From Nitrospirales bacterium (lineage in GTDB: Bacteria > Nitrospirota > Nitrospiria > Nitrospirales > UBA8639), in the NCBI GenBank assembly GCA_963422365.1, contig OY729426.1, positions 896,001-960,000 of the forward strand: a stretch of DNA of 64,000 bases, in the 5' to 3' direction. A program made the position numbers. Positions 59,201 to 64,000 of this stretch are shown in pieces. How positions within the stretch are numbered: position 1 is the stretch's first letter; the number at the start of each line of letters is the position of its first letter.

Positions 59201-62200
59201 GATGCCCTGCTTGAGACCTTGACCAGGCGTACCGTAGTGGGAGCGATCATGGATGTCTGGGAAAGGGAACCTTCTCTCAACTGGGATCTTCTGAACCACG
59301 TCACTCTTGGCACACCACACATTGCCGGCTACTCCTCTGACGGAAAAATCAAGGGAACGGTGATGCTGTACCACGCCTGCTGCCGTTTTTGGGGGATTGA
59401 GCCGACCTGGACGCCTCCCCCGGATCTTATAGATCCGGTACCGTCAACAACTCTCGCATCCGGGAACTCGCCCGAGATTGAATTTGATGCGACCGGCAAG
59501 GATTTCCAAACTCTCGCCCATGACATTACCGCGACGCTTTATGACCTCCAGGGAGACCATGCGCGGATGAGGGAAGTGCTCGCTCTTCCCAAGCCACTGC
59601 GGCCACAGGCATTCGACCGGCTCCGAAGGGACTATTCGCATCGAAGGGAATTCGCCTCCTCACCAATCGCCATCAAGGGTGGAGATCGAAACCTGTTTGC
59701 CCGATTACACGCCTTGGGAATCAACGCGAGACAACCCTGAGCCATGTATCGAAAATGGTATTGACACAGGATTGTTGAACTCCTATAATTACATATTTCC
59801 TATCGGAAATATATGAATTGGCATGCTCAAGGTTCCACTTAAAGTGACGTATGCGATCTTTGCGACCCTGGATCTCGCCTTGCGATACGGGGAGGGACCG
59901 ATTCAAGCCAAGATGATTGCCAGAAGGCAAACCATCCCTCCACGCTTTATTGAGCAAGTACTTCATGCCTTAAAGCAAGGTGGCATAGTTGACAGCCTCA
60001 GGGGCCCCCAAGGAGGATACGTGCTGCGGCAACCGCCATCTGAGGTTTCCTTAGCCGCCGTTGTTGAAACGATGAACGGCCAAGCTGAACCGGAAACACA
60101 AGCGGGAAGCACGAACGGCCATTCCTTGCGGCCTCTCCATCAAGAGGCCTTATTATCGACACTCTGGGATCGCGTGTACCAAGCCGAACGAGAGGTGTTG
60201 AGTTCGGTCACGCTTCAATCTTTGATCGAACAATATATGCAGCTCGAACAAACGCGCGCGCCGATGTATCACATTTAACGTTGCGGACGTTGAGGGAACA
60301 CTCCCCATTGACAATAAGCCAACCACCATGACGTATGACGAGCAGCTCATTCTGGAGGCACATCATGAACACGGGCCGTCTCACCACGCTCCCTGAAATT
60401 GACACCATTCCTATTCCTCAAGAGATTCAAGAGGAAATTGAAACGTTTGAAGACGAGGTCAAACGGTTGCAGGCCGGCGACATCCCCGGAGACCTGTTCA
60501 AACCGTTCCGGTTGCAATACGGCATCTATGGACAACGGCAGCCGGACGTGCAAATGGTGCGCATCAAAATTCCCTTTGGCGGGATGACATCCAACCAGTT
60601 GCGCCGGATCGCCGAACTGGCCGAGACCTATGCCACCGGGGTCGGCCACGTCACCACCCGGCAAGACATTCAATTACACTTTGTGCCGTTGCCGCAAATC
60701 AGCACGGTCATGCGAAAACTCGAAGAAGTGGGGCTCACCACTCGTGAAGCCTGTGCCAACACGGTCCGCAACGTCACGGCCTGCCATCTGGCCGGTGTTT
60801 GCCAAGGTGAAGTCTTTGACGTGACCCCGTACGCGAACACCGTGGCGCGACATTTGCTGCGAAATCCGCTCAACCAGAGCCTGCCACGAAAATTTAAAAT
60901 TGCGTTTTCCGGCTGCAATCACGATTGTGCCATGACGCCCATCCATGACGTCGGCTTATTAGCGAAGAAGACTGAGGACGGCACGATTGGATTTCGCATG
61001 GTGGTCGGAGGCGGGCTCGGGGCAGCCCCGCGCATCGCGCATCTGCTCCGGGAATTTGTGCCCATGGATGAACTGATTCCATCCATCGAAGCCGTCATTA
61101 AAGTCTTTGATAATCTCGGTAATCGGAAGAATCGCAGCAAAGCCCGCATGAAGTTCGTGATTGAAAAATTGGGGTTTGAAGAATTTCGACGCCGATGGGA
61201 AGCGGCCTATGAAGACATGTTCAGTGCCAAGCCTTCGCATCCACCGTTGAAACTCCTCCCGCATGCCGATCCTGCTCCCCTGATTGTGCCGGCGAAGCAC
61301 GGGGCCAACGGCAACGGCGGCCACCCGGATAGTGCGACAGCCCCTTCGTTCGCGACGTGGCGACGAATGAACGTGGTGAAACAACGGCAGGAGGGATTTT
61401 CCGCCGCCGTTCTGAGACTGCCGACGGGCGACATTACCACTGAGCAAATGCTGCTGGTGGCTGATCTGGCCGCACATTATTCCAATGGCAACATTCGCAC
61501 CACGATCGGTCAGAATTTGATTATTCGTTGGGTGTCCGATGGACACATGGAAGCCCTCTATCAGGAATTAGAAGCCCACGGGTTGGGACAACCCGGGGCG
61601 AATAAAACCGAAGACATTGTGGCCTGCCCTGGGACCGATACCTGCGGGCTCGGGATCACCTCATCGAAGGGCGTCGCCCGTGCCTTAGCCGAAGTCTTTC
61701 CGCCGGGACAGGTTCCCGACGATTTGAAAGGGACCACGATCCATATCAGTGGCTGTCATAATTCGTGTGCCCAACATCATATCTCGACCATTGGTCTGCA
61801 CGGAGTGGGCAAACGCATGGGAGACCATATTGCCCCGGTGTATGAGCTTCATCTTGGAGGGCGAATCAACGGGACCGCGGAAGTCGGACAAATGACGATC
61901 AAACTCCCGGCCAAGAACATCCCTTCCGCCATCTCGCACTTGCTTGACGTGTATCGACGAGACCGCCAAGAAGGAGACAGCCTGCATACCTTTATTAAAC
62001 GAACGGGCAAGGCCGCGCTTAAAGAAGAACTGCTCGGGCATTCCATTCTACCCGCATATGCCGAGGATCCCTCGTACTACTTTGATTGGGAAGCGGAAGA
62101 GGAATTTACGCTTGAAGATCTGGGACCCGGTGAATGTGCCGGCGGCGCCATAGAAATGATCGACAATCGGATTTTGGAAGCCGAGCAGGAACTCTACCAA

Positions 62201-64000
62201 GCCCGTATTCTGGCCGAGAAACATCAATGTGCCATGGCCATTAACAAGGCCTATCGAGCCGTGGTGGCCGGAGCCAAAGCCCTGCTCGTAACCGAGGGCA
62301 TCGATCCCAACACCGATGCCGACACGTTGGCGGAATTTGATCAGTTTGCCGCTCGGCAAAATGGGCTTATTCCTCAAACGTATCGAGGGATGGCACGGAC
62401 AATCAGTGATCTGGGTACCAAGGAAAATTCCGCTGAATTCACCAACAAGAAAATGGCCTTTGCCAAAGGGTTCGTGGAGTTTTGCCGAAAACTGACCGAA
62501 GAAATCGGCCAAGACCTCAAGCTCGGACTCTCCGAAGAGACCCCCGCCGTGACGGAACCAGCCCCGGCTCAACGCGAATCCGTTCAAGACGCGACTGTTC
62601 TTGATCTTCGAGGGGTCATGTGCCCGCTGAATTACGTCAAAACCAAATTGAAACTCGAAACCATGGATGAGGGTGAACAATTGGAAGTATGGCTGGATGC
62701 CGGAGATCCCATTAAAAACGTGCCCATGAGTCTTCGCAACGATGGGCACAAGGTGCTCGCCGAAGATCCGTTAGAAGCCGATGCGCAGCACTTTAAGGTG
62801 TTGGTAGAAAAAGTCGAGGTCTAGCAGGATGCTGAACAAGTCCGCCAGTTTTGTCTCGCGACGCTCGGAGGCTCAACGTACCCAAAAGTTGCGGCCCCCT
62901 CTGCCGCCTTGATTGCTGCGGCCGTGCAGGATGGCCTTTTTGACCATCCTGCGGACTGTTCTGATAGCGCCCCGGACCATCTAGTCAGGAGTCACTCGTG
63001 AGTATGCGAGCGAATTTTTCAACAGAGGCACTTCACGAACTGAACCAACGCTTTGCGGCCCACTCGCCGCAAGCGGTCTTGACCTATGCGTTCGAACAGT
63101 TTTCCCCTCGGATGGTGCTGGCGTGTAGTTTCGGTGCCGAGGATGTGGTGCTCTGGGACATGATGCACCGCATCAATCCTCAAGCCTCGTTTTTTTATCT
63201 GGACACGGATTTTCTCTTTCCGGAAACCTACGCCGTGCGTGATCGCCTGATCGACCGGTACAAGGTCTCGGCCGAGCAGGTGATTCGGGTCGTGTCGGCT
63301 CTGACGCCCGCAGAGCAAGCGAGTCAATTCGGAGACCTGTTGTGGGTCCGGCAACCGGATCAGTGCTGCCGGATTCGAAAAGTCGATCCGTTGACCAAGA
63401 TGTTGAAGAACTACGCCGCATGGGTGACCGGCATTCGTCGCGACCAGTCGCCGACGCGCGTAACCGCGGAGCTGGTTGAATGGGACGCCACGTTCGGTCT
63501 TGTCAAGTTCAATCCCCTTGCGGCCTGGACCAACGATGAGGTCTGGACCTACATCAAAGCACATGACGTGCCCTACAACGTTCTCCATGACCAATACTAC
63601 CCCAGCATCGGATGCACACACTGCACCTCGCCCGTTCAGCCGGGCGACGATCCACGGTCCGGGCGATGGCAGCGTCTTGAGAAAACCGAATGTGGGCTTC
63701 ATCAGTAACCATCCTTCCGAAAAAACACCTTTTGGCAAGCGACACCATTGGAATCCAACCGTGAGTTTTATCGACCGTAGACACTGCTGATGCACCAACT
63801 CATCACCAAAATCGGAAAAGGACAACGGGGGGCCAAAGACCTCTCGTGGGGAGAAGCCAAACAGGCCGCCCAGGATCTGATAGAAGGCAACGCGACGCCC
63901 TATCAGGCCGGGGCCTTTTTGATGGCCATGCGGATCAAATTGGAAGCCGTGACGGAATTAGCCTCGTTCACCGCCGCCACGCGCAGCTACGTTCCCCCCA

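Follow-up and report, generated by a model that had tools for sequence, protein, structure and literature searches.

A protein of 819 amino acids, in which a sirohaem sulfite reductase is extended by a junction segment, a HEPN-fold domain, a flexible tether and a TusA domain, probably transfers the sulfur that it has just reduced to carrier proteins serving the synthesis of cysteine and methionine in a bacterium of the order Nitrospirales, and does not free all of it as sulfide. Sulfate assimilation, as described in textbooks, ends in free sulfide, a toxic compound that readily escapes. The fusion is a widespread design, the formation and transfer of a persulfide are inferred, and gene context in other phyla supports the view that sulfur is handed on bound to protein. 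In the form that we favour, with a probability of about 0.55, the protein is a reductase with a swinging TusA arm, on which sulfur is carried as a persulfide of C753 and passed via ThiS-type carriers to homocysteine and cysteine. The acceptors are probably thiocarboxylate carriers of the ThiS type, which E1 enzymes without a rhodanese domain activate.

The gene lies at positions 60365–62824 on the forward strand of the window (the stretch of 64,000 nucleotides of contig OY729426.1, contig positions 896001–960000, that was analysed), and its translation is free of stops; an in-frame ATG at 60335, upstream of the start at 60365, would instead give a product of 829 amino acids. The survey's finding had described this 819-residue reading frame and its domain set, and a rerun of the Pfam search gave near-identical numbers. 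The AF2 model of the entire protein has a mean pLDDT of 88.8 and a pTM of 0.81. The gene is part of a conserved operon with the order Rrf2-sir-cysH-GT3-cysD-cysNC. Directly upstream is a CymR/IscR-like regulator of the Rrf2 family (59823–60278, forward strand; Pfam Rrf2, 3.8e-31), which scores 80.1 bits against the NCBIfam model for CymR and 77.4 bits against that for IscR, each under the model's own cut-off; a homologue occupies the same place, on the same strand, in all 48 Nitrospirales loci of at least 15 kb. The reductase gene heads the sulfate-assimilation operon, as had been claimed: it is followed by cysH, for an APS/PAPS reductase (62998–63708, forward strand; Pfam PAPS_reduct, 6.2e-50; NCBIfam PRK02090, 271.3 bits, exceeding the cut-off of 154), by a TrpD2/YbiB-like gene of glycosyltransferase family 3, the 5' part of which (63790–64000, forward strand) continues past the end of the window, and then by cysD and cysN/C. 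The glycosyltransferase gene stands between cysH and cysD in 48/48 of the long Nitrospirales loci.

The reductase core (residues 55–556; 60527–62032, forward strand) consists of two NIR_SIR_ferr plus NIR_SIR repeats. The Pfam NIR_SIR model matches two stretches (4.2e-58), the better being residues 131–280, and NIR_SIR_ferr likewise matches two (1e-37), one of them residues 55–122. The best solved fold match is NirA of Mycobacterium tuberculosis (1zj8; Foldseek E 2.9e-35, TM 0.79 on the target), a ferredoxin-dependent assimilatory sulfite reductase, and the fold also matches 5h8y and 1aop. The canonical cluster and sirohaem cysteines C421, C427, C464 and C468, a C-X5-C ... C-X3-C motif in the C-terminal half (61625–61768, forward strand), are invariant in 66/66 sequences and align with the cysteines of CysI; R66, R135, K176 and K178, equally invariant in all 66, align with the anion-site residues of Escherichia coli CysI, and LPRKFK of the core aligns with LPRKFK of CysI. 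The N-terminal half carries an extra motif of the same form (C140, C146, C184 and C188; 60782–60928, forward strand), complete in 27 of the 66 family members; in alignments, the counterparts of the segment from C140 to C188 are the cluster-binding segments in Fsr-type enzymes and, in nitrite reductases, the C-terminal half. The protein falls under all NCBIfam equivalog cut-offs (NirA family, 294.8 vs 523; ferredoxin-nitrite reductase, 240 vs 594; CysI, 188.8 vs 457; ferredoxin-dependent sir, 120.5 vs 731.5), and, given these scores, is on sequence grounds a separate subfamily of sirohaem reductases, one with a core that resembles sulfite reductases and not nitrite reductases. Its assignment in the survey to the sulfite type is upheld by the CysI anion site, the cluster cysteines and the cys operon. 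A genome-wide search of the 2.5-Mb genome returned the fusion gene as the only NIR_SIR gene, and its product is predicted to be the organism's sole assimilatory sirohaem sulfite reductase, ferredoxin-dependent by similarity. The alignment with E. coli CysI stops at residue 548, so the tail is an addition to the enzyme.

The tail begins with a junction (residues 561–600; 62045–62164, forward strand) containing the motifs YYFDW and GPGEC, in which D574 and C591 are invariant. C591 (in GPGEC) and the TusA cysteine C753 are both present in 66/66 full-length homologues, of 25–82% identity. Residues 561–580 have a pLDDT of 95–97 in the model of the whole protein, vs 66–76 when the tail is folded alone, and the junction is modelled as packing on the reductase core. 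The helical region that follows (residues 601–712; 62165–62500, forward strand), previously noted as a weak HEPN match, proved to have a true four-helix HEPN fold. The Pfam match spans residues 603–686 (6.9e-5, 23.4 bits vs a cut-off of 22), and the model of the tail matches AF_0298 (2hsb) with a VIA Z of 15.7 (rmsd 2.6, 119/126 residues aligned, 23% identity), followed by 1wol (Z 13.7), 1ufb (13.2) and the sacsin HEPN domain (12.8). Catalytic HEPN RNases are marked by an R-x4-6-H motif; neither this motif nor an Arg...His pair is conserved in the region among the 66 sequences, in which conservation of at least 60% between residues 595 and 714 is confined to D597, R638 and E653, with no conserved His, and the domain is of the non-catalytic type. 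A low-pLDDT tether (residues 713–743; 62501–62593, forward strand) connects two confidently folded domains; its pLDDT is 41–47 at residues 721–740, residues 724–739 are disordered, and it is the least conserved part of the 66 sequences (0.25), with a length of 16–52 residues (median 30).

The TusA domain that had been reported at the C-terminus, with its cysteine motif, is well supported (residues 744–816; 62594–62812, forward strand; Pfam TusA at 745–816, 2.6e-16, 59.6 bits vs a cut-off of 28.6). The active-site cysteine that TusA proteins conserve where helix 1 begins is C753, found in 66/66 sequences; P754 and N756 are also invariant. The domain, a two-layer alpha/beta fold, superposes on YeeD of the YeeE-YeeD complex (8j4c_B; Z 13.1) and on E. 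coli TusA (3lvj_C; Z 12.4, rmsd 2.0, 75 residues aligned). The motif typical of TusA, CPxP, is absent from the fused domain, which has CPLN; CPxN is present in 59/63 fusion ORFs from other phyla, the free TusA of the operons has CPMT and one free TusA of the present genome has CPMP.

A search of the reading frames of 201 Nitrospirota genomes with a profile of the tail found it entire in long frames in 77 of them, with two more cases split over contig ends, while free-standing TusA frames (about 80–180 aa) matched the profile only at positions ~172–264. The survey's contrast between long frames with the whole tail and free TusA genes matching only its end holds in this larger sample, in which the outlying frames of 1234 and 563 aa were also recovered (G014, G007). 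The fusion is not restricted to Nitrospirota; it occurs in Bacteroidota, Omnitrophota, Spirochaetota, Planctomycetota, Campylobacterota and further phyla. Wolinella succinogenes DSM 1740 has a 764-aa member with both cysteines, and in some proteins JAB is fused as well, giving JAB-reductase-TusA triple fusions (e.g. P0351, 914 aa).

Outside Nitrospirota, the fusion gene is usually directly downstream of ThiS-MetY-ThiF-JAB genes. Among the 61 loci analysed (of 80 listed, 19 short or 5'-truncated loci being left out), ThiF lies within 7 kb in 44, JAB in 39, MetY in 33, ThiS in 28, a CysK/M-like gene in 24, DsrE2 in 15 and an extra TusA in 14; in 29/61, JAB is the next gene upstream and shares the strand, and 17/61 have none of ThiF, JAB and ThiS within this distance. 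All 45 ThiF proteins of these loci are 238–291 aa long, too short for a rhodanese domain, so these E1 enzymes lack one. Within Nitrospirales, genes for ThiS-type carriers, E1 or JAB adjoin the fusion in 0/80 loci. Co-occurrence with JAB is uninformative within Nitrospirota, because JAB is present in 192/201 genomes with or without the fusion.

In the present genome, candidate acceptor genes are found about 0.9 Mb from the fusion, as ThiS-CysK-ThiF and ThrC-like-ThiS-NIL-ThiF-JAB. The two ThiF proteins (267 and 275 aa) are matched by the MoeB/MoeZ models (387–392 positions) in the adenylation part alone, and beside their genes are two ThiS-like carriers, JAB, CysK and a second ThrC-like enzyme. 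A MetY-type enzyme was not found in the genome (best PF01053 match 34 bits, positions 44–195); its position is taken by the second ThrC-like enzyme, which is accompanied by genes for ThiS and a NIL-domain protein. CysK exceeds the cysK equivalog cut-off (446.5 vs 350.95) and CysE is present (252 bits), so an ordinary free-sulfide route to cysteine is possible. The genome also has rhodanese domains at five loci (six domain matches), one free TusA of the tail type and DsrE2 paired with TusA, so the E1 enzymes have other potential donors of sulfur.

In the favoured mechanism, sulfite would be reduced at a sirohaem/[4Fe-4S] site formed, by homology, by C421/C427/C464/C468 and R66/R135/K176/K178. 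The tail comprises a junction with C591, modelled as packing on the core, a rigid, non-catalytic HEPN spacer and a tethered TusA with C753; the TusA domain would act as a swinging arm on its disordered tether of about 30 residues and take up reduced sulfur as a Cys753 persulfide. Conversion of a thiol and sulfide to a persulfide requires an oxidant; the survey's idea of a persulfide made from sulfide by TusA alone fails on this point and overlooked C591, the other invariant cysteine, with which a disulfide/persulfide cycle becomes possible. Nascent HS- could be captured by a C591-C753 disulfide, giving C753-SSH and C591-SH, or C753 could attack partly reduced sulfur at the sirohaem. The arm would then deliver sulfur to the acyl-adenylate of ThiS-type carriers, made by rhodanese-less E1 enzymes, and C591 would resolve the resulting acyl-disulfide, freeing the carrier thiocarboxylate and re-forming the disulfide, so the proposed cycle would be redox-neutral overall. 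Homocysteine and cysteine would then be made with sulfur from the thiocarboxylates. Of the channelling originally put forward, the hand-off from a fused TusA with an invariant cysteine is retained, backed by the carrier-gene context in other phyla, with ThiS-type proteins as the likely acceptors instead; no sign was found of channelling to Fe-S or thio-cofactor synthesis in a context of ThiF, JAB, MetY and ThiS, and the retention of all sulfide is not borne out in a genome with canonical CysK and CysE.

Other roles are conceivable. The core might be a nitrite reductase or a bifunctional enzyme with a tail unrelated to sulfur assimilation, given that ferredoxin-nitrite reductases are its top PDB sequence matches and second-best NCBIfam match and that it is the genome's sole NIR_SIR protein; this is highly improbable, however, for an enzyme with the Lys-x-Lys anion site of CysI, where nitrite reductase has Lys-x-Asn (K-W-N in the wild-type tobacco enzyme, the N226K mutant of which is the best local match), with the sulfite reductase NirA as its top fold match, with a cys operon kept in 48/48 loci and with a fused sulfur-carrier domain. 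YeeD/TsuB and archaeal TusA proteins bind thiosulfate or thiosulfonate, and the fused TusA could similarly work on the substrate side, in thiosulfate assimilation, binding thiosulfate or a thiosulfonate and yielding a protein persulfide and sulfite, the latter then being reduced. This seems improbable: YeeD is the top fold match of the domain, although effectively tied with E. coli TusA, and thiosulfonate-carrying TusA proteins are published, according to the excerpted text (PMC4175335), but cysH, cysD and cysNC, which share the operon, serve sulfate activation, no YeeE-like gene is among the 20 commonest neighbour families, and the CPxN motif is neither the CPMT of the free operon TusA nor the canonical CPxP.

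A regulatory or protective role is quite unlikely. Here the tail would either gate the reductase in response to sulfide or persulfide, or scavenge the product and so shield an aerobic nitrite oxidiser, and it would feed no defined acceptor. Such a role would agree with the lack of acceptor-gene linkage in Nitrospirales (0/80 loci), with the presence of canonical CysK and CysE, and with a HEPN domain that may serve in nucleotide binding or in dimerisation, non-catalytic HEPN domains often being ligand-binding or dimerising modules, but it leaves unexplained both the tight ThiS-ThiF-JAB-MetY operon linkage in many phyla and the JAB-reductase-TusA fusions. The trisulfide mechanism of DsrAB/DsrC is established, and suggests a more pointed form of the favoured reading, which differs in where the sulfur is taken: C753 and C591 would intercept sirohaem-bound, partly reduced sulfur after four electrons, the product would be a persulfide or trisulfide, and sulfur would reach cysteine and homocysteine through ThiS thiocarboxylates without free sulfide ever being formed. 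Two invariant cysteines in the tail, one on an arm modelled as mobile and the other in a junction modelled as packing on the core, are consistent with this. It nevertheless seems unlikely, as the cysteines lie on different modules, separated by a median of 162 residues, unlike those of the C-terminal arm of DsrC, the core has a full assimilatory anion site, and DsrA/B are only distant structural matches (TM 0.43–0.49 on the target).

If the swinging-arm reading is true, many bacteria, including nitrite oxidisers, gut Bacteroidota and Campylobacterota, pass sulfur on in protein-bound form, and the missing sulfur donor is supplied for the rhodanese-less E1 of the protein-thiocarboxylate routes to methionine and cysteine. 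The fusion is a clean test case, with two cysteines in one polypeptide and with cultured carriers in W. succinogenes and Sulfurospirillum. W. succinogenes is also the organism of the HcyS/HcyF/HcyD/MetY pathway reportedly described by Krishnamoorthy and Begley in 2011. As the general idea was already published in 2006, the gain would be a mechanism, not a new pathway. The survey had presented the link between reductase and TusA as new to the field, but neighbourhoods of SirA (TusA), ThiS, E1, JAB and sulfite reductase were published by Iyer et al. 2006 (PMC1779556), and the fusion is found in many phyla. According to the excerpted text of that paper, SirA is always present in these neighbourhoods, the E1 is always without a rhodanese domain, SirA is proposed as a rhodanese substitute, and some actinobacteria have ThiS fused to the C-terminus of sulfite reductase.

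The closest known systems include the type 4e neighbourhood of Iyer, Burroughs and Aravind (ThiS/MoaD, JAB, E1, SirA, sulfite reductase and OAH sulfhydrylase) and the Wolinella HcyS pathway; the gene set around the fusion in other phyla matches, with an E1 without rhodanese and a TusA/SirA domain in every case. In Nitrospirales, the carrier genes lie apart from the fusion, a ThrC-like enzyme and a NIL-domain protein take the place of MetY, and the 2006 paper, as excerpted, has SirA as a component, without a covalent reductase-HEPN-TusA protein or C591. NirA/SirA of M. tuberculosis (1zj8) and E. coli CysI share the two-repeat NIR_SIR fold, the cluster cysteines and the Arg/Arg/Lys/Lys site, but end at about residue 550 of the fusion, without the C591 junction, HEPN or TusA, and the fusion has the additional cysteine motif in its N-terminal half. 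The likeness to DsrAB/DsrC is one of concept, a sirohaem sulfite reductase with two conserved cysteines and a mobile element; the present carrier has a different fold and is covalently attached to an assimilatory core, with cysteines far apart in sequence. E. coli TusA (IscS-TusA, 3lvj) and YeeD/TsuB (8j4c) have the same fold and active-cysteine position, whereas the fused domain has CPxN instead of CPxP and, unlike E. coli TusA, which is supplied by a cysteine desulfurase, is joined to the sulfur-making enzyme itself. The actinobacterial fusions, as far as the excerpted description goes, also carry their sulfur carrier at the C-terminus of an assimilatory sulfite reductase, but there it is the final carrier ThiS, whereas here it is a transfer domain, TusA, preceded by a HEPN spacer.

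The 819-codon open reading frame at window positions 60365-62824 (+), which an alternative in-frame ATG 30 bases upstream would extend by 10 residues, is shown by homology to join a sirohaem sulfite reductase, an HEPN-fold spacer, a flexible tether and a TusA fold with its cysteine. Pfam recognizes two successive repeats of NIR_SIR_ferr/NIR_SIR, HEPN at residues 603-686 as a marginal match (23.4 bits, for a cut-off of 22) and a TusA domain at residues 745-816 (59.6 bits, for a cut-off of 28.6). The fusion of reductase and TusA reported as the survey's finding is confirmed by the open reading frame, Pfam and fold matches; the domains and their numbers were reproduced by Pfam, and the sole slip concerned the contig offset, the window corresponding to contig positions 896001-960000. 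The gene is the only NIR_SIR gene of this genome (2.50 Mb, single contig, 98.6% complete). Public annotations call such fusions 'sulfurtransferase TusA family protein', 'HEPN domain-containing protein' or 'sulfite reductase (ferredoxin)'.

Sulfite is the likely substrate of the reductase core, as judged from the anion-site motif, the fold matches and the operon. In a comparison with Escherichia coli CysI (from the K-12 record), the LPRKFK of the core aligns with the LPRKFK of CysI, and R66 and R135 align with CysI arginines; all are invariant across an alignment of 66 full-length homologues (25-82% identity). Wild-type tobacco nitrite reductase has K-W-N where the core has Lys-x-Lys, whereas the best local match to the core is its N226K mutant. 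The AF2 model of the whole protein (pLDDT 88.8, pTM 0.81) is closest in fold to NirA of Mycobacterium tuberculosis (1zj8; E 2.9e-35, TM 0.79 on the target), followed by plant nitrite and sulfite reductases and CysI. The fusion scores far below the cut-offs of all NCBIfam equivalogs, and is therefore considered a separate subfamily.

The canonical C-X5-C ... C-X3-C ligands lie in the C-terminal half of the core (C421, C427, C464, C468). A second complete motif of this kind occurs in the N-terminal half (60782-60928 (+), residues 140-188), directly after the RKFK anion-site residues, in the layout seen in Fsr and Dsr enzymes but absent from CysI and plant nitrite reductase. Such a motif could mark a second catalytic site, although this is unlikely, given that T458 and G456 occupy, as read from the sequence, the places in the C-terminal half of K178 and K176 in the N-terminal half, and that the four extra cysteines are all kept in only 27 of the 66 family members. 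Since the C-terminal half has no matching lysines, a second [4Fe-4S] cluster is the more likely role of these cysteines.

The tail, from about residue 561, can be divided into four parts. Residues 561-580 (..YYFDW..) have a pLDDT of 95-97 in the model of the whole protein versus 66-76 in a model of the tail by itself, a drop that we take to mean that they pack against the core. They are followed by a GPGEC loop containing C591, which is invariant in the 66 sequences, as are D574, C753, P754 and N756. A strict GxGEC pattern matches 218 of 234 full-length sequences, and the remainder are variant spellings of it, because the alignment has C591 in 66/66. Residues 601-712 form a helical bundle in the model, with matches to HEPN structures well above the helical background: AF_0298 is the best (2hsb; Z 15.7, rmsd 2.6, 119/126 residues, 23% identity), followed by 1wol (Z 13.7), 1ufb (Z 13.2) and the HEPN domain of sacsin (Z 12.8). 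No conserved Arg...His pair was found in this domain across the 66 sequences, so the HEPN is not of the nuclease type. The next stretch, residues 713-743, is disordered (pLDDT 41-47) and constitutes the least conserved part, varying in length from 16 to 52 residues. The TusA domain, with a CPxN rather than a CPxP motif, matches YeeD in fold at Z 13.1 and E. coli TusA at Z 12.4. A predicted complex of this domain (740-819) with residues 1-720 scored 0.00 in two runs without controls, a value that speaks neither for nor against binding. Four short, tail-only representative proteins (P0122, P0145, P0158 and P0242) begin at the junction and may be either true split genes or truncated gene calls.

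A search with the tail alone against 1.84 billion representatives gave 1210 matches at E <= 0.001, 387 of them at E <= 1e-10; many of the matched proteins are 740-900 aa long and carry the tail C-terminally, with 29-45% identity. Within Nitrospirota, 77 of the 201 sampled genomes contain the whole tail by hand count, and in two more it is split across contig ends. These genomes comprise all 62 sampled from the order, all 66 from the class and 13 Nitrospirota genomes outside the class (families f9, 6/6; f13, 5/5; f12, 1/1; f10, 1/38). Named records beyond this phylum include members of Bacteroidota (Prevotella, Paludibacter, Prolixibacteraceae), Omnitrophota, Spirochaetota, Planctomycetota, Acidobacteriota, Desulfobacterota, Calditrichota, Fibrobacterota, Chlorobiota and Campylobacterota, and Sulfurospirillum cavolei is among them. 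As a finding in this window, the fusion adds one member to a large family, still uncharacterised, that extends across phyla.

Among Nitrospirales loci of at least 15 kb, 48 of 48 have the order Rrf2 - fusion - cysH - TrpD2/YbiB-like GT3 - cysD - cysNC (cysNC in 47), and across 80 loci of this order of bacteria no thiocarboxylate genes lie near the fusion. The TrpD2/YbiB-like glycosyltransferase-family-3 gene (385 aa; window 63790-64000, continuing to 9790-10947 of locus L003) lies between cysH and cysD in all 48 long loci. Upstream of the Rrf2 gene, the window carries an AhpC/TSA peroxiredoxin gene (57797-58405, minus strand) and a gene for a PdxB-like 2-hydroxyacid dehydrogenase with DUF3410 (58334-59740, plus strand); this position is kept in 14/48 and 8/48 long loci, respectively. 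Farther upstream are two open reading frames of exactly 785 aa each (49732-52089 and 52711-55068, both (+)), the translations of which have near-identical C-terminal ends (..DLPDYPI.RI.TGQFIQGQGRLWTSEF.PD); the first also repeats an internal module (..FLxVFPMDKADLPDSRRR..).

For the other phyla, 61 of 80 fusion loci were analysed (19 were too short or cut inside the gene), by clustering the open reading frames within 7 kb of the fusion and naming cluster representatives by Pfam. The most frequent neighbours were ThiF (44/61), JAB (39), CobA-HemD (36), MetY (33), PAPS_reduct (31), precorrin-2 dehydrogenase-like proteins (29), ThiS (28), CysK/M-like proteins and CysN (24 each), DUF2061 and Rrf2 (18 each), DsrE2 (15) and free TusA (14). 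The commonest order is Rrf2 - ThiS - MetY - ThiF - (DsrE2 - TusA) - JAB - fusion, with the DsrE2-TusA pair separating ThiF from JAB in 14-15 of the 61 operons, and JAB directly upstream of the fusion in 29. All 45 ThiF proteins of these loci are 238-291 aa long, leaving no room for a rhodanese domain. JAB is fused N-terminally to reductase-HEPN-TusA in metagenome proteins of 914-928 aa (P0348, P0351 with 914 aa, P0355, P0359 and P0383) and in the 921-aa open reading frame of locus L136. The co-occurrence of Prok-JAB with the fusion in Nitrospirota cannot discriminate, because 192 of the 201 genomes have JAB with or without it.

In the window's own genome, comparable genes form an eight-gene row about 0.9 Mb from the fusion, on the minus strand (G000:C1:1863512-1868751; L084:3512-8751). 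Its first four genes encode ThiS (66 aa), CysK (309 aa), ThiF (275 aa) and a ThrC-like protein (412 aa), and its last four a SAMP/MoaD-like ThiS (93 aa), a NIL-domain protein (94 aa), ThiF (267 aa) and JAB (202 aa). Both ThiF proteins match just the adenylation part of longer MoeB/MoeZ models. The true thrC lies elsewhere, adjoining homoserine dehydrogenase, and no MetY-type enzyme was found in this genome. This arrangement suggests routes to both cysteine and homocysteine by protein thiocarboxylates, in which homocysteine synthesis would use a threonine-synthase paralogue. The genome also encodes CysE, five rhodanese-domain loci, a DsrE2 (DrsE_2) gene directly followed by a TusA with a canonical CPMP motif (G000:C1:418912-419682), and a free 81-aa TusA of the tail subtype (CPYN; DLRGVICPYNFVKTKL) on the minus strand (G000:C1:2312683-2312934; L085:4680-4925), adjoining a tetrapyrrole methylase gene and close to hemA. 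A matching free TusA is the second match in nearly every sampled Nitrospirales genome.

The proposal that the built-in TusA takes over the sulfur as a persulfide and channels it to cysteine, Fe-S and thio-cofactor synthesis appears partly right, although its acceptors were wrongly chosen and the general idea is not new. Exclusive channelling is disfavoured by the canonical CysK and CysE, by the presence of rhodaneses and further TusA proteins, and by the lack of linkage to the acceptor genes in this lineage. The TusA domain may swing from the reductase to an E1-carrier complex and back. The formation of a persulfide from sulfide and a thiol requires an oxidant. The second invariant cysteine points to a cycle that is redox-neutral: HS- would be taken up by a C591-C753 disulfide, the C753 persulfide would attack the carrier acyl-adenylate, and C591 would resolve the acyl-disulfide, releasing the thiocarboxylate and restoring the C591-C753 disulfide. 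Alternatively, C753 might directly attack partly reduced sulfur at the sirohaem, in a manner resembling DsrC. The family deserves a biochemical test.

The ThiS-JAB-E1 pathway has reportedly been the subject of biochemical work by Krishnamoorthy and Begley in 2011. This work is cited in a passage of PMC5764234. No published description of a reductase-HEPN-TusA protein was found in the titles and abstracts that literature searches listed, but the TusA review of Tanabe, Leimkuhler and Dahl (2019), cited in a passage of PMC10839748, may mention it. A precedent is found in passages of Iyer, Burroughs and Aravind (2006; PMC1779556), which describe neighbourhoods combining ThiS/MoaD, JAB and E1 with sulfate-assimilation genes, including sulfite reductase and O-acetylhomoserine sulfhydrylase. 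According to these passages, the E1 always lacks a rhodanese domain and every such neighbourhood has a SirA protein, for which a rhodanese-like role was predicted. Their list includes Wolinella succinogenes, strain DSM 1740 of which has a 764-aa member of the fusion family that is built of the same parts and contains both cysteines, and in some actinobacteria they report ThiS itself fused C-terminally to sulfite reductase.
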